Source: an uncultured Pseudomonadales bacterium
GTDB lineage: Bacteria > Patescibacteriota > Microgenomatia > UBA1400 > UBA12108
Direction of reading: 5' to 3'
DNA: 64,000 bases
Assembly (NCBI GenBank): GCA_964349305.1
Contig: CAYGFS010000001.1
Location: 15,209 to 79,208 of the forward strand
The stretch's first letter is position 1. Every line of letters starts with the position of its first letter. Under the pieces are notes generated by a model. The model searched no databases, had not been told where the DNA came from, and worked only from the letters and a program-made list of their open reading frames with translations. Position numbers and translations under genes: made by a program. Positions 6,016-62,885 of this stretch are shown here, one piece after another.

Positions 6016-7043
6016 TACAAAAATGCTAGCCAGAGTCCAAGTAATGCCAGGATGATGGCGGCCAGCCATGCTCGGGTCACAATTTTGGGTTCCTCCCAGC
6101 CGATAGATTGCAGCCAGAGATGAACGGGCGAGAGTGGTAAGAGACGTCTACCGAGGTAGCGTTTACCAAACATTTGCAGCAAGCTAGAACAAATTTCGAG
6201 TACAAACAAACCCCCAATAATGGTGACCGCAATAATTTTGCCTAGCAAGAGCCCAATGACAGCGAGGGTGGCACCAAACGACAAGGCTCCCACATCCCCC
6301 ATCGTGATACGAGCAGGGTAAGTATTAAAGTAAAGAAAAGCTAAAATACCGCCCAACCACAGGGAGATAAAGAGCGTAATGGGAGTATCTAAAATAGAGG
6401 TGGCGAGGATAATCAGGGCAAACAAGGTAATCATGAGCAGTCCGCCCGCAAGACCGTCGAGTCCGTCAGTAATATTGACGGCGTTGCTAAAGGCAACAAT
6501 GATAAATGAGGAGAATGGGACAAAAAACCACCCTAGATTGATGACCCCAAAATAAGGCAAGTTGATAATACTGATCCCAAGTACGCGATAAAGATACCAA
6601 CCAATCCCAAGCCCAATCAAGGTCTGCACAATGAGTTTGAACCGCCAGGAAACCCCGACCAGGTGGGAGCTTTTGCCGAAAAACTTGATGATGTCGTCGT
6701 ATAAACCGAGTAGTCCAAATAAAATAAAAGTGGCAAATATAACATTGATTTCACCCCGATAATTGTAAACACTTTGGATATCGGCTCCGACTAATCTGAG
6801 CATGGCCATGACGAGCGCAAACAAGACAACGGTCGTCACAATGATGAGCAGGCCGCCGCCTACGGGCACCCCAGCTTTCTTTTTGTGGAGCTTGTTAAAG
6901 ATTGAGTTGACCGTCCCCATAAAATCGGCGGTTCCCCTGCCCGGCCGCTGGAATTTGAGGCTATAAAGCAAGTTGATAAAGGGAACAATCAGCGCGGCGT
7001 TGATGGTGAATGAAAAGAGGAGGAAGCCCAATAAATTGTTCAT
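6015..7043 (-). CDS. mraY: phospho-N-acetylmuramoyl-pentapeptide transferase MraY
   Basis: 342 aa polytopic membrane protein of the MraY/WecA family, in dcw context. Confidence 0.85.
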   Translation of the reverse strand: MNNLLGFLLFSFTINAALIVPFINLLYSLKFQRPGRGTADFMGTVNSIFNKLHKKKAGVPVGGGLLIIVTTVVLFALVMAMLRLVGADIQSVYNYRGEINVIFATFILFGLLGLYDDIIKFFGKSSHLVGVSWRFKLIVQTLIGLGIGWYLYRVLGISIINLPYFGVINLGWFFVPFSSFIIVAFSNAVNITDGLDGLAGGLLMITLFALIILATSILDTPITLFISLWLGGILAFLYFNTYPARITMGDVGALSFGATLAVIGLLLGKIIAVTIIGGLFVLEICSSLLQMFGKRYLGRRLLPLSPVHLWLQSIGWEEPKIVTRAWLAAIILALLGLWLAFL

Positions 7044-7387
7044 ATTAGCTTGGGAATAAAAACTACTAAACCAATGAGAGCAGCAAATATCGCTGAAATA
7101 AGTACAGCCCCAGCCGATACATCCTTCGCTCTTTTAATATTCTCGCTGTGTTCGAGCGTGACGGCGTCACATAAAAATTCGATAGAAGTATTGATCATCT
7201 CAGCCAACATGACGATTGAGATGGCGACCAGGAGATCTAAAATATGATCAAGGTCTATTTTGAGGTAGACAGCGGCAAAAATGACTAGCGAGGCGACGGC
7301 AAAGTGAATGCGGATATTGGCTTGGGTGGCAATAGCAGTCCAGATACCCCGAAAGGCATTTTGAAAGGAGATGGTGTGCTTTGACAT
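7040..7387 (-). CDS. dgkA: diacylglycerol kinase / undecaprenol kinase family protein (DgkA)
   Basis: 115 aa, three TM helices, DgkA motifs (EMINTSIE...). Embedded in the dcw operon. Confidence 0.7.
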   Translation of the reverse strand: MSKHTISFQNAFRGIWTAIATQANIRIHFAVASLVIFAAVYLKIDLDHILDLLVAISIVMLAEMINTSIEFLCDAVTLEHSENIKRAKDVSAGAVLISAIFAALIGLVVFIPKLI

Positions 7388-7411
7388 ATGACTATAATAT
7401 CACGCTTGTTG

Positions 7412-7489
7412 CCTGCAAGGACTGTCCTTGAAGCTGCCGCTTCGCCCTTCTCGGCTTGCAGCCGGGAATTCCTTTTAAGGACAGTCCTT
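7412..7489. repeat. structured palindromic element in the murA-dgkA spacer: CCTGCAAGG-led unit, palindromic 13-mers AAGGACTGTCCTT (7417-7429) and AAGGACAGTCCTT (7477-7489) flanking a GC-rich inner hairpin (GCTGCCGC..GCTTGCAGC)
   Basis: Direct reading: the two 13-mers are reverse complements of each other and each is self-complementary. The 3' copy overlaps the last codons and stop of murA. No T-tract follows, so this is not a classic intrinsic terminator. Confidence 0.6.
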
Positions 7490-8801
7490 AAATACGACGA
7501 ATATTTGCTGATAAATTCTGTAATCGCTCGTCGAAGCGTTCGTAGCCGCGATCGATTAGCTCAACGTTGTCGATCACAGACTCTCCCGTGGCCAAGATCG
7601 CAGCCATCACTAAAGTAGCACCGCCGCGAAGGTCTGGCACAGTCATGTGGGATCCGCGCAGAGGTGTGGGGCCCGTGACTTTGACGGCGTGGGGATAACT
7701 GGTAATTTCGGGATAGTTAAAATCGTAGAACTTTTCTGGGTTAACAGGTGAGGGATCGTAATACTCGATTTTGGCTCCCATCGCATTTAAATCTTTGGCA
7801 AATGCCAGGCGATGCTGGGTGACTGTTTCGACGATCTTGGATATACCTTGAGCTTGGGTCATCATAGTAGTCCAGAGTGGCTGCCAATCGGTCATGAAAC
7901 CGGGTTCAGGCGCAGTGGTGAGGTCGGCCGCAACCAAAGGTTTTTCATAATAAAAACGAATACCATAATCGGCAATGTCGTATTTACCGCCGATCTCGTC
8001 TAGCTTGGAGAGAAATGCCGTCAGATGGGCAGGGTTGGCACCCTCAACAATAATATCTCCGCGGGTAGCAATAGCCATCGTAGCGTAGGAAACGGCTTCA
8101 TTACGATCTGGCATGACAAAGTGGGTCGCGCCGTGGAGTTGGTTTACGCCGACGATCTCGACGTTGTCCCCTACTCTTTTGACTGATCCACCCATTTTGT
8201 TAAAGAATTCGATGAGATCATCAATTTCTGGTTCGTGGGCAGCATTCTCAATCACCGTTTTACCTTTGGCCAAGACAGCCGCGATAATGAGCGCTTCTGT
8301 TCCAGTGTGAGATTTTTTTTCAAAGCGATAGGTGGCGCCACGCAAACCATTCTCGGCGATCATTTGGATACCCTGGTCATCGCAAATAACGGTAGCTCCC
8401 ATAGCACGGAATCCGTCCAAGTGGCGGTCAATGGGGCGCTCTCCCAGAGCGCACCCGCCAGGGAGCGGGATAATGGCACGGCCTTTTTTGTTGAGGAGTA
8501 AACCGGCAAAGAGGGTGGCAGCCCGCGTCTTTTGCCCGGTGAAACTAGGGATTGTGTCGGTGGATAAACCATTACCCACAATATAGACCGTGTTATCTCC
8601 TGGCCGAGAGCATTTTACGCCGATGGCGTTTAGGGTTTGATAAGTTACGTCCACATCGCCGATTTGACTCATGTTGAGGAGACGCGATTCCCCGACCCCA
8701 CAGGCAGCCGCGATCATTAGCTTGAAACTAGCATTTTTGGCTCCTCCCAGACGAACTGCGCCTTTGAGGGGGGTACCGCCAATGATCTTAAAACTTGTCA
8801 T
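7488..8801 (-). CDS. murA: UDP-N-acetylglucosamine 1-carboxyvinyltransferase MurA
   Basis: 437 aa, MTSFKIIGGTPLKGAVRLGGAKNA... EPSP-synthase fold, catalytic Cys region (GGCALG). Confidence 0.9.
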   Translation of the reverse strand: MTSFKIIGGTPLKGAVRLGGAKNASFKLMIAAACGVGESRLLNMSQIGDVDVTYQTLNAIGVKCSRPGDNTVYIVGNGLSTDTIPSFTGQKTRAATLFAGLLLNKKGRAIIPLPGGCALGERPIDRHLDGFRAMGATVICDDQGIQMIAENGLRGATYRFEKKSHTGTEALIIAAVLAKGKTVIENAAHEPEIDDLIEFFNKMGGSVKRVGDNVEIVGVNQLHGATHFVMPDRNEAVSYATMAIATRGDIIVEGANPAHLTAFLSKLDEIGGKYDIADYGIRFYYEKPLVAADLTTAPEPGFMTDWQPLWTTMMTQAQGISKIVETVTQHRLAFAKDLNAMGAKIEYYDPSPVNPEKFYDFNYPEITSYPHAVKVTGPTPLRGSHMTVPDLRGGATLVMAAILATGESVIDNVELIDRGYERFDERLQNLSANIRRI

Positions 8802-8825
8802 GCGAACTAATTCTAACTGAGAAAA

Positions 8826-9800
8826 CTACTTTTGGCCAATAACAATGACTTCTTCCGTCAAGTCCACTCCGTATTTTGCTTTGATTTTGGTTTTAATTTC
8901 CTGAATTAATGTGAGGACGTCGGCTGAAGTGGCAGTACCATCGTTAACGATAAAATTGGCGTGGACCTCAGAGACTGAGGCGCCTCCGACCCGGAGCCCT
9001 TTGAGACCGGCTTTGTCCAGCAAATATCCAACGGATTGAATCGTATCGGGAGTGCCCAGACGCATGGCGTCGGCGAGCGGGATATTTTTGAACATACACC
9101 CAGAACTGGGAACCCCCAGCGGCTGGGTGGTGGCACGGCGTTTCACCGCGGCATTGGCGATTTCCCACAATTCACCTTTATTCCCTCTCTTCAATTGAAA
9201 TGAAGCTGAAAGAATAGTTTCTTTGGTCTTGTGAAAAATGCTGTAATCATAATCAAATTTGAGATCTTGTTGTGTATATTTTTTGATCTTTCCCTCTTGA
9301 TCAATCGCAGCTACTTCGATGATGTGGTCGCCAAAGAGCTTATCTAAATGATGGGAGTTGTTGTAGACGGCGCCCCCCACGGTACCGGGTAGCCCCAACA
9401 TATCCTCGAGTCCCTGTAAACCCTGATCTAGAGTGTAGCGGATGAGGAGATTGGCTGGGACACCTGAATCGGCTTGGACAATCGCTTCTTTAAGGTCGAG
9501 CTTGCCGTTTTCGACCCCACCAGCGAAACCTTTGAGTTGGATACCCGAAGTTTTGTTTTTGATAACTAATCCGCGAAAACCAGCGTCGGTGACCAAGATA
9601 TTGCTGCCACCACCAATGACTAGGTAGGGGACTTTGTACATAATGGCGGATTGGACCGATGCGGCAAGCTCGTCTGATGTTTTGGCTTCGTAGAGGAGGT
9701 CGGCAGGGCCGCCGAGTTTGAAATAGGTATGTTTGGCGAGCGGTTCGTCCATTTTGAGCCGATCGGAACCGAGGGATTGGATAATAAATGAGTAATTCAT
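8826..9800 (-). CDS. murB: UDP-N-acetylenolpyruvoylglucosamine reductase MurB
   Basis: 324 aa, FAD-binding N-terminal domain (YFKLGGPADLL, VIGGGSNIL) and MurB C-terminal domain. Confidence 0.85.
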   Translation of the reverse strand: MNYSFIIQSLGSDRLKMDEPLAKHTYFKLGGPADLLYEAKTSDELAASVQSAIMYKVPYLVIGGGSNILVTDAGFRGLVIKNKTSGIQLKGFAGGVENGKLDLKEAIVQADSGVPANLLIRYTLDQGLQGLEDMLGLPGTVGGAVYNNSHHLDKLFGDHIIEVAAIDQEGKIKKYTQQDLKFDYDYSIFHKTKETILSASFQLKRGNKGELWEIANAAVKRRATTQPLGVPSSGCMFKNIPLADAMRLGTPDTIQSVGYLLDKAGLKGLRVGGASVSEVHANFIVNDGTATSADVLTLIQEIKTKIKAKYGVDLTEEVIVIGQK

Positions 9801-9810
9801 AATTTACTTT

Positions 9811-9875
9811 AAGGTCAGACCTTCCCTCCTGATTGATTATGGTCGGGTTGGGCACTTCCTTCAAGGTCTGACCTT
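9811..9875. repeat. paired 13-bp palindromes AAGGTCAGACCTT (9811-9823) and AAGGTCTGACCTT (9863-9875) with a 39-bp spacer, spanning the murC stop codon and lying 10 nt upstream of the murB start
   Basis: Direct reading: the two 13-mers are mutual reverse complements. Same architecture as the AAGGACTGTCCTT/AAGGACAGTCCTT pair at 7417-7489. Confidence 0.6.
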
Positions 9876-11215
9876 GTAGCGTCGCCTATTTTCACCCATT
9901 TTTCATGGAGTTTGTAGACAAATCCCGCACCCATGGTGAGGATGAGATCGCCAGGTTTGGAGGCGGCCCAGACAATATCGGCGGCATTGTCCCACGTGAG
10001 CGCCATGGCCGCCGAGTTATGTTTAGCCACTTCGGCGGCGAAGGACTCCGGGGTAATTTGGTGAGCTACCCCTTTTTCCCTGGCTGATTCGAAAATAGGC
10101 ATGATGAAGGGAAGATCGGACAGGGCGATCGATTTAGCAAATTCGTCCAGCAATGCTTCGGTACGGCTATAGGTATGGGACTCGAACACGAGTAGAATGC
10201 GGGAGTCAGGAAAATGTGCTTTAAATGATTGAACTGTGAGCTCAATCTCGCGTGGATGATGGCCGTAATCGTCGTAAAGTAGGCGTCCAGCAACCTCTCC
10301 ATGGCTTTCCTGGCGTCTCCCTGCTCCATGGTAGGCCTTGATCGCTGCGAGTGCTTGCGATTCGCTTAAACCGGCCTCTATGGCGGCCAAGACGGCGGCC
10401 AGTGCATCCAACTTGTTTTGATCGCCAAACACGGAGAGCTGGAGTTGGGCATAGAGCGAGTGGTTTGATCCGTATGGTATCACTTTGATATCCTGCAGGG
10501 CCTGGCCCTGAAGGTCGAGAATTTGAGCGGTCAAAGGGTCGGAGGGATTACAGATCCAAGTACCACCTACAGGAATGGAGGCCACGAGGTCGGCAAACGC
10601 CTGACGGGTAGCGGAGGCGTCCGGATAAATATCGGGATGATCGTGGATGATATTGGTGGTAATCAGGATTTGGGGAGTAAGGAGCGCAAACTTTGGCCTG
10701 GAATCAGTCTTGCTAATGGCATACTCGTCTGATTCCACCACAAAGTAGGAATCATCCCCTGCATGACCGGGGGCACTGAGCCCAGCGATAGATCCAGTAC
10801 CGACATAATACCCGACATCACGCCCAGCTGCGTGAAAAAGTGCGGCCAGCATGGCGGATGTGGTGGTCTTACCCCCAACCCCAGCCACTGAGATGACTTT
10901 TTTATCACTGACAAACTCGGCCAGAGCTTCGGCGAGTGAGAGAGGGTCAGACACTCCCGGAGTGTGGGAGCCCTTCACTCCGGGAGTGATGGATGCAGTG
11001 GCTACATAAGCCCCAGAATAAATAATTTCATCAACGTCAGGGATCGGATCGGAAAAAGATTGAATTTTGATACCTCGCTTATTCAAAATATCGTCCGTGA
11101 TAAATGACTCATTTGTGTCTGACCCAGATATAGTCCAACCGGTATCTTGCATGGCGAGAGCCAGCGAACACATCCCTACACCCTTGATCCCGATATAATA
11201 CGCTGATTTGGTCAT
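9815..11215 (-). CDS. murC: UDP-N-acetylmuramate--L-alanine ligase MurC (carries two in-frame palindromic insertions)
   Basis: 466 aa, MTKSAYYIGIKGVGMCSLA..., Mur ligase P-loop (GVGGKTTTSAML). Confidence 0.9.
   Translation of the reverse strand: MTKSAYYIGIKGVGMCSLALAMQDTGWTISGSDTNESFITDDILNKRGIKIQSFSDPIPDVDEIIYSGAYVATASITPGVKGSHTPGVSDPLSLAEALAEFVSDKKVISVAGVGGKTTTSAMLAALFHAAGRDVGYYVGTGSIAGLSAPGHAGDDSYFVVESDEYAISKTDSRPKFALLTPQILITTNIIHDHPDIYPDASATRQAFADLVASIPVGGTWICNPSDPLTAQILDLQGQALQDIKVIPYGSNHSLYAQLQLSVFGDQNKLDALAAVLAAIEAGLSESQALAAIKAYHGAGRRQESHGEVAGRLLYDDYGHHPREIELTVQSFKAHFPDSRILLVFESHTYSRTEALLDEFAKSIALSDLPFIMPIFESAREKGVAHQITPESFAAEVAKHNSAAMALTWDNAADIVWAASKPGDLILTMGAGFVYKLHEKWVKIGDATRSDLEGSAQPDHNQSGGKV
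10492..10514. repeat. family-B in-frame palindromic element copy B1 (CCTGCAGGGCCTGGCCCTGAAGG) inside murC, encoding LQGQALQ
   Basis: 22/23 identical to 42573-42595 in an unrelated GT4 gene. 11-bp arms with a 1-nt loop. Confidence 0.7.
10952..10988. repeat. family-A in-frame palindromic element copy A1 (CACTCCCGGAGTG-TGGGAGCCCTT-CACTCCGGGAGTG; arms 13 bp) inside murC, encoding TPGVKGSHTPGV
   Basis: Second copy at about 36094-36130 in a GT4 gene with the same loop, stems changed in a compensatory way (T/A swaps), and an identical encoded peptide. Confidence 0.75.
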
Positions 11216-11216
11216 A

Positions 11217-11963
11217 TCATGGTTTTATTTTGGTTTGTGCTTTGGCAAAATCACTGCGATTGTTGACACCATGCCAGATAGAGTCATCTTTGACGAAGAA
11301 AGCCTCGACTTTCTTGCCATTTTTGAGCGCGATTTCGATCATGTCGGTCAAATAATATTCGCCTGAAAGCGGATTTTGTTGAATTTGGTCGATGTAGCTC
11401 TCTAGAAACTTTTTGTCAAAACAGTAAAACCCAGTATTAATTTCTTGGATCTGTTTCTCTCCGTCGGTCGCGTTTTTTTCTTCTACGATACGGAGGACTT
11501 TACCGTTTGCGTCCCGAATGATGCGACCTAAACCGGTGGGGTCTTCTTTGTGGATGGTGAGAAACAGGAGGTCGCAGCCGAGATCATTTTTCTTGGCGGC
11601 CATTTCGGAAAACAAGGCGGGGGGATAGAAAGCAGAGTCGTCGCCGTAGACTGTCAGGACTGTGGTGATATCTGAACCAAGATGTGGGATAGCGGTTTTG
11701 ATGGCGTCACCGGTGCCAAGCTGCTGATCCTGGACTGCGTAAGTTACTTTGTTGCCTAGTGCCGATCGAACTGAATCAGATTGGTAGCCGACCACGGCAA
11801 TCACCGTGGATATACCCGCCTGGTAGAGGTGGTCCACGGTACGGACAATCATTGGTTCGCCGCCGAGTTTGAAAACTACTTTGTTTTTGGTTTTGGCTTT
11901 CATCCGACTCCCACGGCCGGCGGCAAGGATGATAGCGGCGGTATTTGTTAAATCATAAATCAT
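11217..11963 (-). CDS. sugar-1-phosphate nucleotidyltransferase, GlmU N-terminal-domain-like (UDP-GlcNAc pyrophosphorylase-like); no acetyltransferase domain
   Basis: LAAGRGSRMK nucleotidyltransferase signature (as in GlmU VILAAGKGTRM), about 248 aa. Start set at MIYDLTNTAAIILAAG; the longer track ORF overlaps the murE 3' end. Confidence 0.6.
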   Translation of the reverse strand: MIYDLTNTAAIILAAGRGSRMKAKTKNKVVFKLGGEPMIVRTVDHLYQAGISTVIAVVGYQSDSVRSALGNKVTYAVQDQQLGTGDAIKTAIPHLGSDITTVLTVYGDDSAFYPPALFSEMAAKKNDLGCDLLFLTIHKEDPTGLGRIIRDANGKVLRIVEEKNATDGEKQIQEINTGFYCFDKKFLESYIDQIQQNPLSGEYYLTDMIEIALKNGKKVEAFFVKDDSIWHGVNNRSDFAKAQTKIKP

Positions 11964-11982: not shown

Positions 11983-13269
11983 TTATTTCTTGTTGAGTGC
12001 TGCTTGTAATGCTTCGTGTTCGGACCAAGGTGTTTCAGTATATCCATCGAGGTTCATCGATTCTTCGTGTCCCTTGCCACAGGTTACTACCCAATCCCCT
12101 GGTTTGGCCAGTACATTGATAGCATAACTGATCGCTTTTTGCCGGTCGAGCTCGATCGTGACGCTCCCGCGCTTTTTCTTAGGGATACCGACCATAATTG
12201 CTTGGGCAATCTCGCCGGCATCTTCGACTCGCGGATCTTCGGAGGTCAAGACAATTTTATCCGCCAGTTCGGCGGCAGCTGCCCCCATCAAGGGGCGCTT
12301 GGAGGCATCTCTGAGTCCGGCGGAGCCAAAGACGACTATGAGCGACTCGCCCTCTCCTAGTTTGGAGCGCAAGTTGGTGAGAACCGAGCGCAAGGCATTG
12401 GGAGTGTGGGCAAAATCGACGAAGGCGTGAATACCTCTGGTATTATTAATCTCTTCGAGCCGACCGCGGACTCCGCGAAAACTAGAGAGAGCATGTTTGA
12501 TATCGATCGGACTAATCCCCAGCAGTAGTGCGGTAGAGATGGCAGCCAGAGTATTGTAGAGGTTGTACTCACCAGTGAGGGCGATCGTGTAGGTGGTAGA
12601 ACCCAGGGTAAAGACGGTCTTGTCGGCTAAGTATTCGATGTGGTCTGGCTTGATTTGTGAATCCGTCTGAATAGAATAAGTCGAGAACATTACCTTGGGG
12701 AGACGCGCATTGATGTCACCAAAAATCTCCAAATCTTTGTTGACGACGGCGTGGCGCGCATGCTTGAAAAGCTTGAGTTTAGCGTCGCGATAGGCGGCAA
12801 AGTTCGGGTGATAATCGAGATGTTCGTGAGTAATGTTGGTGAGGACAGCAATCTTCGGTCTGAGAGGGTAAACGCGGAATTGATCGAGGCCGTGGCTCGT
12901 GACTTCGAGGACTACGTAGCGGATTTTTTGTGAGCGCATGCGCCGCAGGAGCGCCTGGAGGGCAAAAGGATTGGGCGAAGTCACGTGGAATCCAGTTTTC
13001 AGGTTTTTGCGGCCTACTTTGGCATCGACGGTCGAGATGAGCGCGACCTTCTTTTTGGCAGTCTTTAAAATATGGTAAATGAGAGTAGAAGTGGTAGTTT
13101 TGCCGTCGGTCCCAGTAACCCCAATGATCTCCAAATCTCTCCCTGGATCACCGTACAGCCTCGCGGCCAAAAATGCCTTGGGAAGATGATAGGCATAATT
13201 GACGACAAACTGAGGAAAAAGCGGGCGAAGTTTTCGCGCTAAACTGAGGATAAGTCGCTTAATTTTCAT
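11983..13269 (-). CDS. murE: Mur ligase of the MurE/MurF type (UDP-MurNAc-tripeptide synthetase; MurE favoured), the only E/F-type ligase in the cluster
   Basis: GVTGTDGKTTTS P-loop, Mur ligase middle and C-terminal domains, C-terminal EDPR motif resembling the MurE DNPR. Start set at MKIKRLILS; the upstream extension overlaps ftsI. Confidence 0.65.
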   Translation of the reverse strand: MKIKRLILSLARKLRPLFPQFVVNYAYHLPKAFLAARLYGDPGRDLEIIGVTGTDGKTTTSTLIYHILKTAKKKVALISTVDAKVGRKNLKTGFHVTSPNPFALQALLRRMRSQKIRYVVLEVTSHGLDQFRVYPLRPKIAVLTNITHEHLDYHPNFAAYRDAKLKLFKHARHAVVNKDLEIFGDINARLPKVMFSTYSIQTDSQIKPDHIEYLADKTVFTLGSTTYTIALTGEYNLYNTLAAISTALLLGISPIDIKHALSSFRGVRGRLEEINNTRGIHAFVDFAHTPNALRSVLTNLRSKLGEGESLIVVFGSAGLRDASKRPLMGAAAAELADKIVLTSEDPRVEDAGEIAQAIMVGIPKKKRGSVTIELDRQKAISYAINVLAKPGDWVVTCGKGHEESMNLDGYTETPWSEHEALQAALNKK

Positions 13270-23584: not shown

Positions 23585-24654
23585 AGACTGTTGATCCTCT
23601 CCTTCATTTGTGTCGCCCAAATATTTTGATCAAACTGCTTCGCGCTGGCTACACAAACTGAGGGCACGAAAGTCATTGTATCAAACTGCTTGAGCGCTTT
23701 GGCAAATGAATCCACCGTCGCTTCCTCGAGTAAAATCCCCGCCTTGCCTGGAATAACAATATCGAGCGCACCACCCCGAGCATAAGCGATGACTGGCTTG
23801 CCGGCAGCTAACGCTTCACACATGGAGATCCCAAAATCCTCCTCATTGGCCTGGAGGTAGGCCAAACAATGCCGGTAGTAATTGGGTAATTCTGCGTCAT
23901 TGACGTGGCCGAGCAATTCGACAGTCGGACCAGCTATTTGCAGGAGACGCCCGTATTCGCTCCCCTGCCCAATAATTTTGAGCTTTACTTTCGCTTGGTT
24001 GGCAGCGCGGATCAACACGTCGATTTTTTTGTAGGGGACGAGGCGTGAGACCACGAGGAAGTAATTAGAATCTAGACTCCAGACTTTAGACTTTAGTGGG
24101 ACTGCAGAGAATTTTGTGGTATCGACAGGGGGGAATATTATTGCAGCATCACGATTGTAGATATTTTTTATACGTTTTTTCACTTGAGTACTTATTGCAA
24201 TCATTTCTTCTGGTCTACTAGCAGCGACCAAATCCCATTGACGCAAGTAATTGCCGACAAAGCGGTAGAGAGGATTTGAGAGGTATTCGCGAGCGTGTGA
24301 GTAGAGATAGCGAGTAGGAGTCAAGCAATAATATAGATGTTTGGTCCCAGGGCGAGTAATGACCCCCTTGGATTCGGCGCTGCCGATCGAGATAACTAAA
24401 TCGTAACTACGCAAATCGAAGGATTCAAAAATAAAAGGCATGAGAAACGGGATCCACTCGTGGTGCGTACGCAAGAATGGAACTCGATTAAGCCAAGAGG
24501 TATGGACGTGCCAATCTTTGGAAAAGGCCGCACGGATGGGATCCCAAACGCTGGTATACCAGTCTGCCTCAGGATACATCTTGTGAAAGGCGATCAAAAC
24601 CTGCTCGGCACCCCCTATTTTGTTTAGGCGATCATAAACTATGGCTACGCGCAT
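23563..24654 (-). CDS. glycosyltransferase family 4 (GT-B, retaining)
   Basis: 363 aa, MRVAIVYDRLNKIGGAEQV..., C-terminal E-x7-E-like GT4 region (LQANEEDFGISMCEALAAGKPVIA). Confidence 0.8.
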   Translation of the reverse strand: MRVAIVYDRLNKIGGAEQVLIAFHKMYPEADWYTSVWDPIRAAFSKDWHVHTSWLNRVPFLRTHHEWIPFLMPFIFESFDLRSYDLVISIGSAESKGVITRPGTKHLYYCLTPTRYLYSHAREYLSNPLYRFVGNYLRQWDLVAASRPEEMIAISTQVKKRIKNIYNRDAAIIFPPVDTTKFSAVPLKSKVWSLDSNYFLVVSRLVPYKKIDVLIRAANQAKVKLKIIGQGSEYGRLLQIAGPTVELLGHVNDAELPNYYRHCLAYLQANEEDFGISMCEALAAGKPVIAYARGGALDIVIPGKAGILLEEATVDSFAKALKQFDTMTFVPSVCVASAKQFDQNIWATQMKERINSLCQTNQK

Positions 24655-25708
24655 TGATCACCTCCGCAATATCTTTGGCTACATCGTCCCAGGTGCGGGG
24701 GAATTTCAGCGGGCGACTGCGTGAGACCGCTACAACGGATTTAATTTTGCTCACTAAATCGTCGACAGAATATGGATCAAAATAAGTGACTTTGTCGCCG
24801 TACACCTCGCGATATACGGGAATATTGCTGGCAATCACCGGTGTGCCGACCATGAGAGACTCTAGCCCCACGAGGCCGTATCCCTCCATCAGAGAAGGCG
24901 TGACAAGCAGCTGGGCGTGGCAATAGACTGAGACCAATTCTTCGTCGGAAAGCCCAGATAGAATGTGGATGCGGGTGCGGTCGTACGGCGCCAGGACTCT
25001 GGCTAAAAAAGGAGATTGTTGGGATACCATAACTAGCTCGTAGTCGGGAAACTGCTTGAGAGCTTCCAGTAATACCGGGAGGTTTTTGTGGGGATAAACA
25101 TTACCGACGAATAAAATATATTTGTTGGGAATCACAAATCTTAAATTCTCAAATTTCAAATTTTTGCGGAAAATCTCGTCCGGAGCCTCGGGGATAGAGT
25201 GGATATGTTCTGGTTTGAGACCCCCGAAACTGGCTAAAATGTCGTTCTTGACGGAGTTGGTCGGGACGATGATCTCTTGCGCGCTTGCTAGGGTGCGCTG
25301 GATAACCTGGTTGTAGCCAAAACGTTTGAGGGCATATAACCAAGGCGAGCGGGTAGTCGTGTCGCTGCCCGTAAAGTGGGTTTTGATCAAATCGTGAACA
25401 GTCACTATCTTGGGGATGCCCGACAAAATGGGAGTATTGAAGTGAAAAGTGTAGAGCAGATCACTCCCCAGAGATTTGAGCAATCTCGGCAGCTTGAGCT
25501 GTTCTGCCAGAGAATAATGGGGGATATCCGCATAGACCTTCTCTACGTTGTTCCCGCCCTCGAAGTGATCATATTCGGCAGTGCGAAGTAAGACCTGCAA
25601 GGTGTAACCTTGCAGGTGTTTGGGGAGGTATTTGAGGACATTGGTGGTGTAGCGGCCGAGACCCGTGTGACCGGAACCATAAAACCTGGCATCGATGGCG
25701 ATCTTCAT
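24632..25708 (-). CDS. glycosyltransferase family 4
   Basis: Start set at MKIAIDARFYG; C-terminal PSLMEGYGLVGLESLMVGTPVIAS. Carries family-B palindromic element copy B3. Confidence 0.8.
   Translation of the reverse strand: MKIAIDARFYGSGHTGLGRYTTNVLKYLPKHLQGYTLQVLLRTAEYDHFEGGNNVEKVYADIPHYSLAEQLKLPRLLKSLGSDLLYTFHFNTPILSGIPKIVTVHDLIKTHFTGSDTTTRSPWLYALKRFGYNQVIQRTLASAQEIIVPTNSVKNDILASFGGLKPEHIHSIPEAPDEIFRKNLKFENLRFVIPNKYILFVGNVYPHKNLPVLLEALKQFPDYELVMVSQQSPFLARVLAPYDRTRIHILSGLSDEELVSVYCHAQLLVTPSLMEGYGLVGLESLMVGTPVIASNIPVYREVYGDKVTYFDPYSVDDLVSKIKSVVAVSRSRPLKFPRTWDDVAKDIAEVINARSHSL
25593..25617. repeat. family-B in-frame palindromic element copy B3 (ACCTGCAAGGT-GTA-ACCTTGCAGGT) inside a GT4 gene, encoding HLQGYTLQV
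   Basis: 11-bp arms with a 3-nt loop. The outer CCTGCA..TGCAGG matches copies B1/B2, while the inner arms differ but stay complementary. Confidence 0.6.
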
Positions 25709-34650: not shown

Positions 34651-35768
34651 TTTTGGTGTCCTCTAGCGGCAGTCATTTTGAGAATCTTGAGTGTTTCGGC
34701 GGCACATTTGTCCCAGGAGAAATGTTTGGCGCGCGCGAGGGATTTTTTGACCCATTGCTCCCGATCCCCCCTGATCTCGGTGATGGCCCGGGCAATGTCG
34801 GCCGGATCACTGGCGTTGAAGAGCACGCCAGCGTCGCCGACCACTTCGGGCAGCGAGGAGTTGCTCGCGACGGCTACCGGGGCGCCACACCCCATGGCCT
34901 CAATGGCTGGGACACCAAAACCTTCGTAAAGTGAAGGCAAAACGTAGACATCGGCGTAAGTGTAGAGAGTTTTGCGGGCTTCGTCGCTGACATACCCAGT
35001 GAGCACAATATCTTTGAATTCCGGTGAATTTTTGATTACATCGAGCGTATCGTCGGCGAGCCAGCCTATTTTGCCGGCAATGACGAGCTTGCCTTTGTAG
35101 CCCGATTGCTTGAGGAGGTGAAACGCCTGAACCAGCTTGATCGCGTTTTTGCGGGGCTGGATGGTACCTAGAAATAGAAGATAGTTTTTAGACTCCAGAC
35201 GATAGTTGGAAAGTAGTTGCGAGGATATTTTTGGACTCACGTTGAAAATATCGGAGTCGTAACCATTGTGGACGACAGAGATTTTATTTTCTGGGACTTC
35301 ATAAATAGTCATTAAATCTTTTTTGGTCGCCTCCGAAACGGCAATAACCGAGGTGGCATGATTCACGGCTGCGCGCGTCCAGTGCTTGAGTTTGTAGAGA
35401 TCGCTTGGTAGAAAAAGGTCGGGGAAATATTCGTAAGCTAAATCATGAATCGTCACTACGCTCGGGCTGCCAACATATGTAGGCATATAGTGAGCGGGAG
35501 ACCAAAATACGTCGTTTTTGGCATGAGTCATGAGATAGATCGGTAGGCCAAAACGAATCCAAGCTTTGGTAGGACCTACCTGCTGATATTGCCAATGATC
35601 AGATTCGGCGGGGAGATCGCCCTGCAAGGGATCACGGTGATAAAGGGTAAAGTCGATCTCGGTACCCTTGTACAAATGTTTGAGAATATGGAAACAATAC
35701 TGCCCAGTCCCGACCCTATTACTGGCGTTGGCTTCGTTGATGTCAATGCCGATTTGCAATCTTTTCAT
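34647..35768 (-). CDS. glycosyltransferase family 4
   Basis: Start set at MKRLQIGIDINEAN; the 30-aa TTG-initiated extension in the track was rejected. C-terminal PSLYEGFGVPAIEAMGCGAPV. Coordinates here may be off by 1 in my line counting. Confidence 0.8.
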   Translation of the reverse strand: MKRLQIGIDINEANASNRVGTGQYCFHILKHLYKGTEIDFTLYHRDPLQGDLPAESDHWQYQQVGPTKAWIRFGLPIYLMTHAKNDVFWSPAHYMPTYVGSPSVVTIHDLAYEYFPDLFLPSDLYKLKHWTRAAVNHATSVIAVSEATKKDLMTIYEVPENKISVVHNGYDSDIFNVSPKISSQLLSNYRLESKNYLLFLGTIQPRKNAIKLVQAFHLLKQSGYKGKLVIAGKIGWLADDTLDVIKNSPEFKDIVLTGYVSDEARKTLYTYADVYVLPSLYEGFGVPAIEAMGCGAPVAVASNSSLPEVVGDAGVLFNASDPADIARAITEIRGDREQWVKKSLARAKHFSWDKCAAETLKILKMTAARGHQK

Positions 35769-41021: not shown

Positions 41022-41882
41022 TTATTTTGATAGTTTTCCAGTTAACAACATCTCGGTAATCCCAACAAAGCGACCGAAATCGTAGATTATTTTATAAATT
41101 AAGAAGAGAGGCTCATTGGGAGATTTGATCATTCCTAGGACTAGCGAAATGGGCATGGACGTGCGGGTGAGGGCGTAGAAGCTACCAAGGAGTCCGTATT
41201 TGTATGGCCGCTTGGCAGACCAGCGAGCCTGGCGGAAGACGGCTCCGAGCGTACCGGGATTGTGGTGGTAACAGATAGCGCGGGTGGCCAGTGGGCGCAC
41301 GCCGAGCTTATTAAACAAGCTCCAGGTATCGGTATAGCCGATGTTATCGAACCCCCCTACCCTGTCAAATTCGGATTTGAGGATGGCGCGAAAATCGGTG
41401 CCGTACGTGGGAGGGCCTGCCTGCGCAGGCAGGTTCGGTGGAAACCTTTTTTTGTCTTCCCACCCCTCTTCAATATTGAGACAGCGCGCCCAGACGTTGT
41501 CCCAATTGGCTACTCGCTCTTCCATGGTATATGTCCCGATCGCTTTCTTTGACTGAATTGGCTGGATTAAATCTTTAACATAATCTTTATCAAAAACCAT
41601 GTCGGCATCGACAAATAATAGGATGTCTGATTGCGCATGACTAGCACCCAAGTTGCGGGCGAGGGCCGGACCGCCATGGTTTTGTTTAATTAAAGTATAT
41701 TTGCGATCACCCATTACTTCGATAATTCGAATTATCGTAGTATCGGTACTACCATCGTCGACGACGATGACTTCGATTGGGACGGACTGCATAAGTAAAG
41801 ACTCTAGACAGGCTTGAATCGTTGACTCTGAGTTGTAAGCCGCGAGGATAGCAGAAGCAACTAATTTATTTGATGAGGTCAT
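41022..41882 (-). CDS. glycosyltransferase family 2
   Basis: ASAILAAYNSESTI...[12 protein letters not shown]...FVDADMVF. Contains the 18-bp perfect palindrome CCTGCCTGCGCAGGCAGG (41413-41430) in-frame (NLPAQAGPP). Confidence 0.8.
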   Translation of the reverse strand: MTSSNKLVASAILAAYNSESTIQACLESLLMQSVPIEVIVVDDGSTDTTIIRIIEVMGDRKYTLIKQNHGGPALARNLGASHAQSDILLFVDADMVFDKDYVKDLIQPIQSKKAIGTYTMEERVANWDNVWARCLNIEEGWEDKKRFPPNLPAQAGPPTYGTDFRAILKSEFDRVGGFDNIGYTDTWSLFNKLGVRPLATRAICYHHNPGTLGAVFRQARWSAKRPYKYGLLGSFYALTRTSMPISLVLGMIKSPNEPLFLIYKIIYDFGRFVGITEMLLTGKLSK

Positions 41883-42933
41883 GAAACTCCTGACTAATTT
41901 GTTTGACCACTGATTTTAACGCGTATGGTTTGAGCTGTGCGCCATAGTCGATTTTGCTGAGTGAGTGAGCTTGCTTGATCCCCTCGACGATGGCTGTGAT
42001 ATTGTGCGGATCGACATAGATACCCTGGTTGCCGATGATGTCACGACGGATGGGGTCGTCTGAGGCCACGATGGGGAGACCGGCAGCCATCGCTTCAAGG
42101 TACACCATCCCAAATGCTTCTTGAGGATCTGGTACAAAACAAAAGATATCACTGCCGCGATAGTAATCAGCTATCTCGCTATGTTCGACTTGTTTGATCC
42201 ATTTGAACTCACCGGGATAGTGACTGAGTTGCCTGGCAATATGACCCTGCTCTTCCCCGTCCCCCACTAAACAGAGTGATACTGACAGCTGGGAAGTGGC
42301 GGCAATCACCGAATCCACATTTTTGTATTTGGAAAGGGCGGAAACAGTGAGAACGACGGGGGACGGGAGTCCAGTAAGGGGTTTATGCTTGCCTCGGAAA
42401 GGTGTTGGATCGAACGGATTGGGGATATAGACGACTTTGGTGGATGAGGGAGCGATCCCACGAGCCCACACCTCTGCATCTGGTGTCAGAGCAACGAATA
42501 AATCTGGTATGGCGCGCAGGCTAGATTTGTCGTGATGACCAATACCGGCATGGCCAAAAGTGATTATCTTGGCCTGCAGGGCCTGGCCCTGCAGGATACG
42601 AACTTGGAGTGGACCGTTAATGGCTACGATAATGTCGGGCTTAAATAGAGCCAGCTGGGGAATGGAGGACTGGGTAAACTGGGCGACCAACCCACTCTCC
42701 TGGTCGACGTGGAGACGAAAAAGTAATTTCTCCCACATATTGCGGGGGGCAGAGGGCGGGATTTGACTAAGTGGGTTAACTCGTTTGACTAAGTAGGGCT
42801 TGGGCGATACAGGGCCTGATTGGATCATGAGGACGTCGTGATGTTTGGATAGTTCACTGGCGAGTTGATCGACCACGACCTCGCTACCTCTTTCGATAAG
42901 TCCCATGGTCATGTGCAAAAAAATTATTCTCAT
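41866..42933 (-). CDS. glycosyltransferase family 4
   Basis: C-terminal FGMVYLEAMAAGLPIVAS. Carries family-B element copy B2 encoding ILQGQALQA. Confidence 0.75.
   Translation of the reverse strand: MRIIFLHMTMGLIERGSEVVVDQLASELSKHHDVLMIQSGPVSPKPYLVKRVNPLSQIPPSAPRNMWEKLLFRLHVDQESGLVAQFTQSSIPQLALFKPDIIVAINGPLQVRILQGQALQAKIITFGHAGIGHHDKSSLRAIPDLFVALTPDAEVWARGIAPSSTKVVYIPNPFDPTPFRGKHKPLTGLPSPVVLTVSALSKYKNVDSVIAATSQLSVSLCLVGDGEEQGHIARQLSHYPGEFKWIKQVEHSEIADYYRGSDIFCFVPDPQEAFGMVYLEAMAAGLPIVASDDPIRRDIIGNQGIYVDPHNITAIVEGIKQAHSLSKIDYGAQLKPYALKSVVKQISQEFHDLIK
42573..42595. repeat. family-B in-frame palindromic element copy B2 (CCTGCAGGGCC-T-GGCCCTGCAGG), perfect 11-bp arms
   Basis: Near-identical (22/23) to copy B1 at 10492-10514 in murC. 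Confidence 0.7.
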
Positions 42934-45037: not shown

Positions 45038-46134
45038 ACAGCTCTTATTGTCTCACAGACAGTCCCTATTTGGTCATCGGTGATAGCCAAGCCAGATGGC
45101 AGGTAGCAGCCGTCCCTGGCAATCCTCTGTGTGACCGGGAATGACCCACCTCCCAAGCCTTTATCGGTGAGGGCTGGCTGGGTGCTGGGAGCATAAAAGA
45201 AATCGCGGGTATCGATCCCTTTGGACAGTAATTTGGCGCGAAACTCATCTTTATTGCAGCCAAATTTGGACTCGTCAATCAGGATGGCGTACATCCAGTA
45301 CACGTGAGTCGCCCAATTTCTTGTAGTAGGGAGGGTGATTCCAGGAATATCTTTTAATCCTGCTAGGTAAAGTTTGGCCATATGCTGTTTGGTGGCGAGA
45401 AATTCGCCGATGTGCTGGAGCTGACCGCTGCCGAGGGCTGCCTGCATGCTGGTCATGCGGTAGTTGTAGCCGAGGGCGTCGTGGATAAAGCGCTTGGCTG
45501 TACTGTGGGCTAAATCTTTCATCCTCCCCGCAAGTTCCGCCATCTGATCATTGTCGGTTGTCACCATGCCACCCTCGCCGGTGGTAATTATTTTGTTGGC
45601 GTAAAAACTAAAGGCATTCACGTCTCCGATAGATCCAGTCAGTTTGCCTTTGTAGGTAGCCCCGTGAGCTTCGGCGGCGTCTTCGATGACTACCAGGTCG
45701 TGTTTTTTGGCGATCGCCAAAATGGGATCCATATCGGCGGGATGACCGTAGATATGCACTGGCATGATGGCTTTGGTTTTAGCAGTAATTGCGGCCTCGA
45801 TGAGAGCAGGGTCAATCGTGTAGATATCCGGCTCGACATCGACAAAAATGGGAGTGGCCCCGGTATGCATGACCGCCATCCATGAGGCGGCCATGGTAAA
45901 TGCCGGTACGATGACTTCGTCCCCCTCGCCAATCCCGGCCGCCAGTAAGGCAATGTGGAGCGCAGCAGTACCGGTATTGACCGTGATGGCGTGTTTGACT
46001 CCCAGATACTCTGCAAATTCGTGCTCGAATTCGCTGAGGTAGGGTCCGGCAGAGGAGATCCAACCCTCTTCGAGTGCTTTGGCGACCAAGGACTTTGATT
46101 CTGGGGTAATGACGGGGGCGTTGACGGGTATCAT
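45022..46134 (-). CDS. DegT/DnrJ/EryC1/StrS-family PLP-dependent sugar aminotransferase
   Basis: 370 aa, VNTGTAALHIAL...VIVPAFTMAASW... and the conserved Lys region (SFYANKIITTGEGG). Confidence 0.85.
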   Translation of the reverse strand: MIPVNAPVITPESKSLVAKALEEGWISSAGPYLSEFEHEFAEYLGVKHAITVNTGTAALHIALLAAGIGEGDEVIVPAFTMAASWMAVMHTGATPIFVDVEPDIYTIDPALIEAAITAKTKAIMPVHIYGHPADMDPILAIAKKHDLVVIEDAAEAHGATYKGKLTGSIGDVNAFSFYANKIITTGEGGMVTTDNDQMAELAGRMKDLAHSTAKRFIHDALGYNYRMTSMQAALGSGQLQHIGEFLATKQHMAKLYLAGLKDIPGITLPTTRNWATHVYWMYAILIDESKFGCNKDEFRAKLLSKGIDTRDFFYAPSTQPALTDKGLGGGSFPVTQRIARDGCYLPSGLAITDDQIGTVCETIRAVCPNL

Positions 46135-46568
46135 AGGGCGATAGGGGGATCTTCCCGATAAAATTTCATCAGTTTGTCACCGGGGAATGGCCCTTGCTTG
46201 ACTTCAATCAAATAACATTGCTCGAGGACTTCAAAACCATGACCGCCCGATACCTGGAGGAGAATGTCTCCCTGCTCCAGCATAACTTCCTGCAAAATAT
46301 TCCAGCCGTAATCGTAGATGGTGGCTTTGATCTTGCCTTTTTCGACGTACAAAAACTCTTGGGTAGTATCTACTTTGTAATGGATGTGTGGGTTGTGGAC
46401 GTGATCGCGGATTCGCTTACCTGAGGGATGCCCAATCATACCGACCTGCAAGGTATAGTCGTCGGGGGTTAAAAAATTGACACCGTCAGGACGATGAGCT
46501 TTGCGGAAAACGAGGGCGAATATTTGGCCGTTGCGCTCGATGACTTCTTTGCCTTTTTCCATAGCCAC
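46131..46568 (-). CDS. small cupin-fold protein, possible NDP-sugar isomerase/epimerase (WxcM/FdtA-like)
   Basis: 145 aa beta-rich, immediately downstream of and overlapping the DegT aminotransferase. Contains a half-copy of the family-B element (GACCTGCAAGGT, encoding YTLQV). Confidence 0.4.
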   Translation of the reverse strand: MAMEKGKEVIERNGQIFALVFRKAHRPDGVNFLTPDDYTLQVGMIGHPSGKRIRDHVHNPHIHYKVDTTQEFLYVEKGKIKATIYDYGWNILQEVMLEQGDILLQVSGGHGFEVLEQCYLIEVKQGPFPGDKLMKFYREDPPIAL

Positions 46569-46984: not shown

Positions 46985-47065
46985 ATGTATACGGTATTTC
47001 CTTTTTGGAGACAAAATATTCTTATATTATTTTTACCCAATATTCTGACCTCCCAAAAGTCGTAA
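46985..47065 (+). CDS. candidate small ORF (26 aa, hydrophobic: MYTVFPFWRQNILILFLPNILTSQKS) with a strong Shine-Dalgarno sequence, divergent from the XRE gene
   Basis: AAAAAGGTGGAGT precedes the ATG (GGTGGAG 3 nt upstream of it), a rare canonical SD in this window. Lies in a 275-bp AT-rich spacer. Below the ORF-track size cutoff. Confidence 0.25.
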   Translation: MYTVFPFWRQNILILFLPNILTSQKS

Positions 47066-47148
47066 CCATTTAATTTCTTCAGGTCAATAACTGATGATCG
47101 ATGTAAGTATCTATATCTATGAGGTATTTGATGTTATACATAAGAGGA

Positions 47149-47754
47149 TTATCTAAACTGAGCAATGAACTGCCAAATATTATCCCAAACAGAGCGAGGC
47201 GGACTGAGTGTTGCAGGAGTTTGGGGCAAATCGAGCTGACTGTAGGGAGTGAGACTTTCTACGCTCAAGACATTGGATGTGGCATGGTAAGTACCTACTA
47301 CGACGACTGGTTTCTCAGCCAATCTAGTGGTGTGGTTAAAACCGCCCGCGTAATCGATCACGTACACATCGGAGGTGGGCAAAACTAAAATGTCCCGTGG
47401 CGTACCCCCCATATTGACTTCGTGAATTACCCCTAGCTTGGACATGGGAATGTTCGCTCCCCTGCCCTGCCAAAGCAAATAAAGAACATAAAGAGCGATG
47501 GGTAAAACGAGTAGGGGTATGGTAAAGCGGAGAGAGATGATGGTATTTTGTGATTTCCAAATGCGTTTGAGCGCGAGCCACAGCCGCCCAATCGGATTGT
47601 TTAACTTGAGATTGATATCCACAATGGGATCGTTCAGGTTTTCTGATTGCTTTAAATCCAGATCAATGGCGTGAACCCCGTTGATCGACACTGAGCGGCC
47701 AATGGTCTTTTTACTTTCACTGGCGCGGTCTGAGAGATCGAGAGGATTGGGCAT
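47149..47754 (-). CDS. hypothetical membrane-anchored protein
   Basis: 201 aa with one internal TM helix (IPLLVLPIALYVLYLLW). No known domain. Confidence 0.4.
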   Translation of the reverse strand: MPNPLDLSDRASESKKTIGRSVSINGVHAIDLDLKQSENLNDPIVDINLKLNNPIGRLWLALKRIWKSQNTIISLRFTIPLLVLPIALYVLYLLWQGRGANIPMSKLGVIHEVNMGGTPRDILVLPTSDVYVIDYAGGFNHTTRLAEKPVVVVGTYHATSNVLSVESLTPYSQLDLPQTPATLSPPRSVWDNIWQFIAQFR

Positions 47755-48841: not shown

Positions 48842-48843
48842 GC

Positions 48844-51325: not shown

Positions 51326-51352
51326 GGAGCCATTATACGGTACAATATCCTC
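51326..51352. promoter_or_regulatory. compact divergent promoter region: TATAAT 6 nt upstream of the galE ATG (minus strand) and TACAAT 6 nt upstream of the GT2 ATG (plus strand), implying leaderless transcripts
   Basis: 27-bp spacer ggagccattatacggtacaatatcctc. Minus strand reads gaggatattgtaccgTATAATggctccATG. Confidence 0.4.
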
Positions 51353-57847: not shown

Positions 57848-57852
57848 AGTAG

Positions 57853-59234: not shown

Positions 59235-59236
59235 AA

Positions 59237-62881: not shown

Positions 62882-62885
62882 AAAA

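Follow-up and report, generated by a model that had tools for sequence, protein, structure and literature searches.

The described systems closest to the case reported here are the repetitive extragenic palindromes (REPs) with their doublet form, the REPINs (PMC3116915, PMC5581495), and the Rickettsia palindromic elements (RPEs; PMC10969869). REPINs are REP doublets that form hairpins and are associated with RAYT transposases (PMC3116915, PMC5581495); RPEs are about 150 bp long (PMC10969869). We analysed a 64,000-nucleotide stretch of contig CAYGFS010000001.1 (the whole stretch is hereafter called the window), in which the murC gene contains a 23-bp palindrome that recurs in two glycosyltransferase genes, referred to as GT4a (41866..42933) and GT4b (24632..25708). 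MurC homologs of 65–77% identity come from Candidatus Woesebacteria, Collierbacteria and Microgenomates-group metagenome-assembled genomes, and the window is therefore assigned to a Woesebacteria-like Microgenomates bacterium of the Candidate Phyla Radiation (CPR). On balance, we lean towards reading the murC 23-mer as a member of a clade-specific, REP-like family of hairpin repeats that is maintained at the nucleic-acid level in these bacteria.

All three host genes lie on the minus strand, and their palindromes share the consensus CCTKCARGGNC-N-GNCCYTGMAGG (Table 1), for which CCTDCARGGNCNGNCCYTGHAGG could serve as a search pattern. On the coding strand the murC copy reads C CTT CAG GGC C-A-G GCC CTG CAG G (D-LQGQALQ-D), and 22 of its 23 bases are identical in GT4a; with their neighbouring residues, the translations are DLQGQALQD (murC), ILQGQALQA (GT4a) and HLQGYTLQV (GT4b). 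A first-pass annotation of this DNA had reported the letters, positions and 22/23 match of these palindromes, all of which direct reading of the window bore out. Precomputed Pfam domains mark MurC as a Mur ligase (PF01225/PF08245/PF02875) and both glycosyltransferases as GT4-type (PF00534/PF13692, the second GT4 also PF13439/PF20706). Recent paralogy, which that annotation had named as a possible source of the common 23 bp, is excluded, the hosts being MurC, two different GT4 enzymes and, in relatives, GlyRS and RsmH. Its statement that the flanks are unrelated holds for DNA but not for protein, as MurC and GT4a share the context IL..LQGQALQ..K.I..[YF]G, the same helix-loop-strand setting.

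The pattern proposed at that stage matched twice in the window, against 0.00 matches in 100 shuffles, and nine distinct perfect hairpins with arms of at least 9 bp were present, against about two in Markov simulations. The half-site CCTGCAAGG occurred five times (at 7412, 25594, 25608, 35621 and 46445) where 0.47 were expected, and the half-copies and the degenerate intergenic copy described earlier are indeed there (35621, 46445 and 7412). Paralogy between a GT4 enzyme and the host of the half-site translated YTLQV (46131..46568) was considered and rejected, as the proteins are not homologous.

What is kept at these sites is the complementarity of the two arms. The peptide L[QK]G..L[QK] is codon-palindromic, in that CTG/CAG, TTG/CAA, CTT/AAG, GGC/GCC, GGT/ACC and GGA/TCC pair, and in ortholog DNA the changes come in pairs: CAG/CTG becomes CAA/TTG, Gly GGC, GGT or GGA is accompanied by Ala GCC, Thr ACC or Ser TCC, and CTT is accompanied by AAG. 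The ortholog DNA was obtained from 11 exact-protein look-ups and from a genome scan with the GT4 alignment, which yielded about eight usable relatives among the best 80 loci; L-numbers (L006, L163, L168 etc.) denote these relatives' loci. Across 18 distinct copies, which were partly selected for palindromicity, 92.9% of pairing cells were paired, and the covariation score was reached by none of 500 shuffles and collapsed in slid registers. Pair 10/14 was CG in eight copies, UA in eight and AU in two, with none unpaired; pair 7/17 was AU in 13 and GC in three; and pair 4/20 was GC in seven, UA in five and AU in one.

A codon null model, in which synonymous codons for the observed peptides were resampled from this genome's usage at sites picked by peptide, predicted about 6 of 11 pairs, whereas 9–11 were seen at 13 of 13 sites (P from 6e-5 to 2e-2 per site). 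The preferred codons CTC (Leu) and AAA (Lys) were used at none of the 13 sites. Codon identity at identical residues was 0.54–0.55 within the palindrome and 0.41–0.43 elsewhere, so that the sequence drifts while the pairing is kept. Neither the peptide alone nor conservation of an exact sequence explains the palindromes and, because the arms change together, a constraint on DNA or RNA would help to set seven amino acids of essential enzymes.

The window copies had been described at first as in-frame insertions, a description that the ortholog alignments (120 orthologs each for MurC, GT4a and GT4b) contradict. Orthologs of 47–80% identity align without gaps over both GT4 segments. At GT4a this applies to 120/120 orthologs (47–64% identity), the distant ones having an unrelated heptapeptide of the same length, e.g. 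KAYFPKV, and at GT4b the 120 gapless orthologs form a series from LQGYTLQ, LQGQTLQ and LQGQALQ to LKDHTLQ and LKKHELL. The nine MurC residues are likewise present without gaps in orthologs of 69–77% identity (TLQGLTLQG, DLQGQALKS, NLKGQALKN, NLQGQTLKG), and a shortening by 2–3 residues at the site is confined to the more distant orthologs. Complete copies of the motif L[QK]G.[ATSP]L[QK] occur in 41/120 MurC, 24/120 GT4a and 53/120 GT4b orthologs. The central 23-mer of GT4b (25594-25616) is identical in L176. Among the matches listed from a metagenome scan with the MurC alignment, identity did not exceed 37%; these were generic MurC genes and of no help as ortholog DNA. Since the same sites are occupied in related species, the three window copies were not recently inserted; they are old and have been inherited vertically in place.

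The AlphaFold2 (AF2) model of GT4a, with a predicted local distance difference test score (pLDDT) of 91, has L113-Q119 spanning the C-terminal end of helix 107-114 and the loop that leads to strand 121-125; in that of MurC, L234-Q240 lies, at reduced confidence, in the loop that joins helix 226-233 to strand 243-246. Both copies thus occupy a helix-to-strand loop within an alpha/beta domain; at the other coding sites the sequence context is similar. In Rossmann-like domains such loops face away from the substrate site. MurC had been thought unusually tolerant of palindromes, but it is not uniquely so, because GlyRS, RsmH, a GT2 enzyme and a hypothetical protein of the clade carry such sequences too. 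The proposed rule that all copies are read in the Leu-Gln frame applies at all five internal protein sites found but is not absolute, since frame-C copies exist in the MurC C-terminal tail and in the RsmH loop of L176.

The family is specific to this group of bacteria. Scanned with a degenerate consensus and a minimum of 9 of 11 arm pairs, Microgenomates-type loci gave all 16 matches, and about 2 Mb of unrelated loci retrieved alongside them gave none. The 11-mer half-site occurred 29 times in 271 kb of related loci against 1.8 expected and, by our own estimate, nearly all occurrences lie within full palindromes; the short half-sites CAAGGTC and CARGG[ACT]C were found at their expected frequency. 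Most copies were found within coding sequence, a proportion biased by the gene-centred sampling. In an IMG/VR scan one match was obtained, an identical 23-mer encoding SLQGLALQA in a high-GC phage tape-measure gene; it was rejected as a family member, as GC-rich codon usage alone yields this 23-mer.

Single lineages have also gained copies. In L168, 21 kb contain three coding copies, each read in the frame xLQGQxLKx, and those in GlyRS and MurC share 23/23 bases, an A.A mismatch included. The copy in RsmH of L168 is perfect, and in its place three orthologs encode an unrelated peptide of equal length (DKDQKILTG); about 15/24 bases differ from the orthologs, with flanks conserved at the protein level. 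The same RsmH loop in L176 contains the variant CCTACGAGGTCCGTCCTCGTAGG in another frame (frame C; PTRSVLVG) with three extra residues. At the GlyRS site two orthologs lack five residues; the window gene is of equal length but encodes a different peptide. Slow convergence does not easily explain the gains in L168 and L176, which suggest copy-paste or patch replacement.

Although first described as distinct from other palindromes of the window, the LQG-type copies are connected by intermediates (GT4a of L161 and MurC of L172, Table 1) to palindromes of the type AAGGTC-N-GACCTT, present at the 3' end of murC and at 7412-7492, and the two types form one graded family. The two composites in the window each consist of two palindromes with the core AAGG(T/A)C-N-G(A/T)CCTT and complementary centre bases, and each folds in silico into one long hairpin (z = -3.4 for 9811-9880 and z = -3.8 for 7412-7492). 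The murC composite encodes the MurC tail ..TRSDLEGSAQPDHNQSGGKV, stop codon included, and the C-terminal tail derived from it, RSDLEGSAQPDHNQSGGKV, recurs sporadically among MurC orthologs. Its 22-mer CTACAAGGTCAGACCTTGAAGG recurs without change in L168, in the internal copies of both MurC and GlyRS. Downstream of glyS in L163, CCTGCAAGGTCTGACCTTGCAGG is followed by a conserved spacer and GAAGGTCAGACCTT, with the same spacer motif as in the murC 3' composite; L163 2086-2150 has the two-palindrome layout of the window composites, as read from sequence. The murC 3' end of L172 carries a full-length form, CCTGCAAGGTCAGACCTTGCAGG, and the murC-murB junction across five genomes has no copy, one half, one copy, two in tandem or a composite.

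Within the murC 3' composite a sigma-70-like sequence, TTGAAG-17-CATAAT (9836-9864, minus strand), is followed by AGGAGG upstream of murB. The composite might drive or modulate murB expression, as far as a consensus match can suggest. In L131, a more distant AT-rich CPR locus (36% GC), AGGTC-N-GACCT palindromes occur at 2119-2141, 13188-13208 and 17279, and the two that were checked both lie outside long open reading frames; the AGGTC-N-GACCT core may therefore predate the 23-bp form or be more widely distributed.

Table 1. Palindromic features of the window, related genes, and family copies at orthologous sites in relatives' loci
Feature	Location	Strand	Sequence and remarks
murC host gene	9815..11215	minus	three palindromic features: internal copy, 3'-end composite, separate REP-like doublet insertion 10951-10989
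murC-internal family copy	10492..10514	minus	CCTGCAGGGCCTGGCCCTGAAGG; arm pairs 10/11
GT4a family copy	42573..42595	minus	CCTGCAGGGCCTGGCCCTGCAGG; perfect 11-bp arms; I-LQGQALQ-A
GT4b family copy	25593..25617	minus	ACCTGCAAGGT-GTA-ACCTTGCAGGT; 11-bp arms, 3-nt loop; H-LQGYTLQ-V
murC 3'-end composite	9811..9880	minus	GCTACAAGGTCAGACCTTGAAGG (9858-9880) and GAAGGTCTGACCTT (9811-9824), 33-nt spacer between
Intergenic composite	7412..7492	minus	inverted pair: degenerate 23-mer 7412-7434 (9/11 pairs) and TTTAAGGACAGTCCTTAAA (7474-7492)
Isolated half-site	35621..35629	plus	CCTGCAAGG; possibly a decayed copy
Isolated half-site	46445..46453	plus	CCTGCAAGG; inside gene 46131..46568, translated YTLQV
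18-bp perfect palindrome	41416-41433, GT2 gene 41022..41882	minus	CCTGCCTGCGCAGGCAGG; in-frame 6-residue insertion LPAQAG
murC inverted doublet	10951-10989	minus	TCACTCCCGGAGTGA, 9 nt, ACACTCCGGGAGTGT; encodes ITPGVKGSHTPGVS
PF01797 (Y1_Tnp) RAYT-like gene	L163 19656-20312; L168 18081-18749		about 220 residues; between ftsW and murG
GT4a site, window			CCTGCAGGGCC-A-GGCCCTGCAGG; arm pairs 11/11
GT4a site	L161		CCTGCAAGGCC-A-GGCCTTGCAGG; arm pairs 11/11; two synonymous compensating changes
GT4a site	L006		CCTTCAAGGCC-T-GGCCTTGAAGG; arm pairs 11/11
GT4a site	L165		CCTACAAGGAC-T-GTCCTTGAAGG; arm pairs 10/11; Gly GGA with Ser TCC
GT4a site	L164		GCTGCAAGGTC-A-GACTTTGCAGG; arm pairs 9/11
MurC site	L163		arm pairs 9/11
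MurC site	L168		CCTACAAGGTC-A-GACCTTGAAGG; arm pairs 10/11
MurC site	L172		CCTGCAAGGTC-T-GACCTTGCAGG; arm pairs 11/11
MurC site	L173		CCTTCAAGGT-GTA-ACCTTGAAGG; arm pairs 10/11
GT4b site	L176		23-mer identical to window at 73% protein identity; arm pairs 10/11

Other palindromes of this genome are genuine insertions. The 18-mer in the GT2 gene is inserted relative to five orthologs, and the same CCTGCCTGCGCAGGCAGG is found in L166 (10367), L169 (about 2733), L176 (10093-10110 and 19398) and a hypothetical protein of L168. In L166/L167 it follows Ala5 of the palindrome peptide and reads LPAQAG; in L169/L170 it lies between Gln2 and Gly3 and reads, in another frame, ACLRRQ; and in L176 it is directly 5' of the GT4b palindrome, so that three of six 18-mer insertion sites touch an LQG-type palindrome. 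A 39-nt insertion interrupts the loop of a perfect family copy in L171, and a DLQ duplication is present at the MurC site of ortholog P0004. LQG-type palindromes are preferred sites of further small palindromic insertions. A distant CPR locus (L097) contains CCTGCCTGCCGGCAGGCAGG.

MurC had been credited with two palindromic insertions. One is real, the 12-residue insertion at 10951-10989, which MurC orthologs do not have and where the AF2 pLDDT is below 50; besides it there is the element at the 3' end, but the copy at 10492..10514 is not an insertion. Because it resembles the hairpins flanking the RAYT-like gene, the doublet is probably an in-frame REPIN of the family to which those hairpins belong. 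On both sides of that gene, in L163 and L168, lie hairpins of the form TCAC(N3-5)CCSGG(N3-5)GTGA, whose stems differ between the two loci by compensating changes, an organization that is the RAYT/REP arrangement; a third TCAC..GTGA hairpin occurs within the 3' portion of the L168 glyS gene (2346). Elsewhere in the window, 45705-45722 is a perfect 18-bp palindrome, TTTTGGCGATCGCCAAAA, with the HIP1-like core GCGATCGC and a single occurrence. Positions 47000-64000 have a GC content of 0.43–0.45, compared with 0.47–0.52 in the remainder, and are without copies of any palindrome family; this part may be of different origin.

If the REP-like reading is correct, a hairpin- or cruciform-dependent process would create, homogenise and preserve the family's copies in the manner of REP-type DNA, the candidate agents being a structure-specific enzyme with single-stranded DNA as its substrate, repair templated by the hairpin, or the two together. 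Selection on host proteins would leave copies only in permissive loops and benign frames, and the hairpins at gene ends would probably serve as REP-like mRNA 3' structures. An extended version, which we regard as possible rather than probable, is that CPR Microgenomates carry undescribed, ultra-short (18–23 bp) self-complementary DNA elements that write themselves into coding sequence by insertion or equal-length patch replacement and are then kept as perfect hairpins in a structure-dependent way, directly dictating the recurrent loop peptides LQGxxLQ/K and LPAQAG of essential enzymes throughout a large clade, with LQG-type palindromes as landing sites for the 18-mer. Several observations weigh against the REP-like reading. 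The density of the family is about one copy per 10 kb, an estimate based on roughly 240 kb from related loci. Three near-identical pairs of copies were found when copies within and between genomes were compared, but the mean distance was not lower within genomes and the permutation P was 0.08, so concerted evolution within one genome is suggestive only and was not accepted. The absence of net length change at GT4a, GT4b and RsmH of L168 implies patch replacement or in-place evolution, not simple transposition. No Y1_Tnp/RAYT-like gene was detected in the window by tblastn, and its ftsW-murG junction is without such a gene; the RAYT-like genes of L163 and L168 were rejected as the cognate enzyme on present data, being flanked by the different palindrome TCAC..CCSGG..GTGA, and no enzyme linked to the 23-bp family was found in the window or the relatives' loci. 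Given the partial selection of its copies, the covariation test is less clean than the codon null model, and the few stem mismatches are of mixed type (G.U, A.C, A.A, C.U), which does not allow an RNA role to be separated from a DNA role.

The main rival, to which we would give a minor though appreciable share of belief, is a non-mobile functional cis-element, such as a stem-loop or dimer site for a nucleic-acid-binding protein, or a site for mRNA processing or stability or for chromosome organisation, that is required at a certain density and arose by point mutation at L[KQ]G..L[KQ] loops. Such loops are only a few changes from the consensus because Leu/Gln and Leu/Lys codons are mutual reverse complements. 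The unchanged length at GT4a, GT4b and RsmH of L168 accords with it, as do the graded near-motif peptides of orthologs (LKDHTLQ, LRGEALR, LKRMALK), retention of the sites over deep divergence with compensatory changes, the occurrence of the same sequence between genes, and the common helix-loop-strand context of the modelled MurC and GT4a sites. It does not readily account for the GlyRS and MurC copies of L168 being identical even in a mismatch that weakens the stem, for RsmH gains in two lineages and two frames (once with three extra residues), for the many bases by which RsmH of L168 departs from orthologs with conserved protein flanks, or for the variable copy number at the murC-murB junction; nor is complementarity at pair 10/14 expected for independent half-sites of a duplex-binding dimer. 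The model of the first-pass annotation, in which the window copies are RPE-like in-frame insertions of a mobile palindrome and orthologs without the element are shorter, is unlikely and, for the three sites, largely refuted. In its support, the family is real, is common to unrelated genes in one benign frame and in part behaves like in-frame palindromic elements, true in-frame insertions of other palindromes exist in this genome (41416-41433, 6 aa; 10951-10989, 12 aa), and distant MurC orthologs are 2–3 residues shorter at the site. Yet the GT4 sites are gapless in all aligned orthologs including those that lack the motif, MurC orthologs of 69–77% identity already have the segment, 23 bp is not a multiple of three, and RPEs are about 150 bp (PMC10969869).

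Purely local mutation is very unlikely to be sufficient. According to this explanation the peptide L[QK]G..L[QK] creates a quasi-palindrome whose arms are corrected by intrastrand template switching, with no family, mobility or function involved. It suits arms whose symmetry extends to a 1-nt centre, a feature not required of an RNA hairpin, the joint change of both arms, and the further duplications and insertions at palindromes (DLQ in P0004; loop insertions in L171, L166 and L169), but it leaves unexplained why unrelated sites converge on one sequence, why the same 22–23-mers occur between genes and in other frames, and how a perfect member came from an unrelated peptide in RsmH of L168. 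Chance combined with codon usage, whereby LQGQALQ would occur twice by accident and be self-complementary through common codons, can practically be dismissed. The high-GC phage gene does reach an identical 23-mer through its SLQGLALQA codons, and we ourselves estimate that, in about 20,000 residues, the sharing of one 7-residue peptide is no rare event. This genome, however, has 48% GC and uses mostly CTC for Leu and AAA for Lys, its peptides would give only about 6/11 pairs, the pattern appears in no window shuffle, and the palindrome persists in orthologs through compensated changes; shuffles, codon null model and covariation thus refute it.

If the REP-like reading is true, part of the amino-acid sequence of essential enzymes in a CPR clade (MurC, glycosyltransferases, GlyRS and RsmH) is fixed by a hairpin constraint on the nucleic acid, visible in that Ala, Thr or Ser follows the third base of the Gly codon and Gln or Lys follows the Leu codon. 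REP/REPIN-type biology would then extend to the CPR and to coding sequence, and the family would offer a compact case for the spread and persistence of very short palindromes. For annotation, recurrent LQGxxLQ and LPAQAG peptides and tails such as RSDLEGSAQPDHNQSGGKV would have their origin in repeat DNA and are unlikely to be functional protein motifs. The palindromic elements could also be used as lineage markers.

Other known classes of short motif fit less well. A search of the whole window against Rfam at gathering score gave no match, and nothing was found in the literature on in-frame palindromic repeats in CPR bacteria. Intrinsic terminators were rejected: a terminator scan reported no family palindrome in 7000-11500, the part of the window with the murC-internal copy and both composites but without the GT4 copies, and no T-run follows the stems of family palindromes. 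Highly iterated palindrome 1 (HIP1) of cyanobacteria is an 8-mer palindrome that occurs at very high frequency. Like HIP1, the present motif is palindromic, tolerated within genes and conserved between orthologs, but its unit is a 23-bp hairpin with co-varying arms. A HIP-like identity was rejected, as CTGCAG (9 copies in 64 kb) and CCTGCAGG (3 copies, all within these elements) are not over-represented or iterated. DNA uptake sequences (DUS) and uptake signal sequences (USS) are asymmetric motifs, hyper-abundant as single copies at about one per kb. They resemble the present family as clade-specific short motifs with lineage variants, placed in intergenic inverted pairs and, in preferred frames, in permissive protein loops. 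Here the half-sites lie nearly all inside full palindromes, which argues against an asymmetric uptake-like motif, and the density is about 0.1 per kb; the uptake-sequence idea was rejected, half-sites not being enriched on their own. Quasipalindrome-templated mutation, known as intrastrand template switching from the E. coli literature, would keep arms complementary up to the centre and turn palindromes into hotspots of small rearrangements. It is a local process, however, which leaves one sequence common to unrelated loci and frames unexplained.

RPEs are comparable in being palindromic repeats that a bacterium with a reduced genome carries in-frame in unrelated housekeeping genes, at fold-compatible places and with a recurrent tolerated peptide. 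The present family is likewise found in-frame in unrelated genes at fold-tolerant positions (MurC, two GT4 enzymes, GlyRS and RsmH; helix-to-strand loops where modelled). RPEs differ in being clear insertions relative to orthologs, which the three window copies are not, and in their length of about 100–150 bp, compared with a 23-bp unit (7 codons) whose arms co-vary across orthologs; they also belong to another phylum and have no sequence relationship to this family.

The family also resembles REPs and REPINs, although there are differences here too. REPs are predominantly extragenic, whereas many of the present copies lie in coding sequence, are conserved at orthologous codons and, in several cases, replace sequence at unchanged length. 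The palindrome of the present copies is perfect around a 1-nt centre, a conserved 5' tetranucleotide of the GTAG type was not seen in them, and the RAYT-like genes of relatives are flanked by another palindrome family. As in REP systems, the palindromes are 20–40 bp long, fall into several sequence families per genome and lie at gene ends and within operons, and the short palindrome recurs at many loci, as the 16 consensus matches and the half-site excess indicate. Vertical inheritance, long persistence and a junction copy number that varies between relatives are common to both. The family also occurs as singlets, as tandem copies and as inverted doublets whose palindromes and spacer together fold into a single long hairpin, as described for REPINs (PMC3116915) and as observed here at 9811-9880 and 7412-7492.

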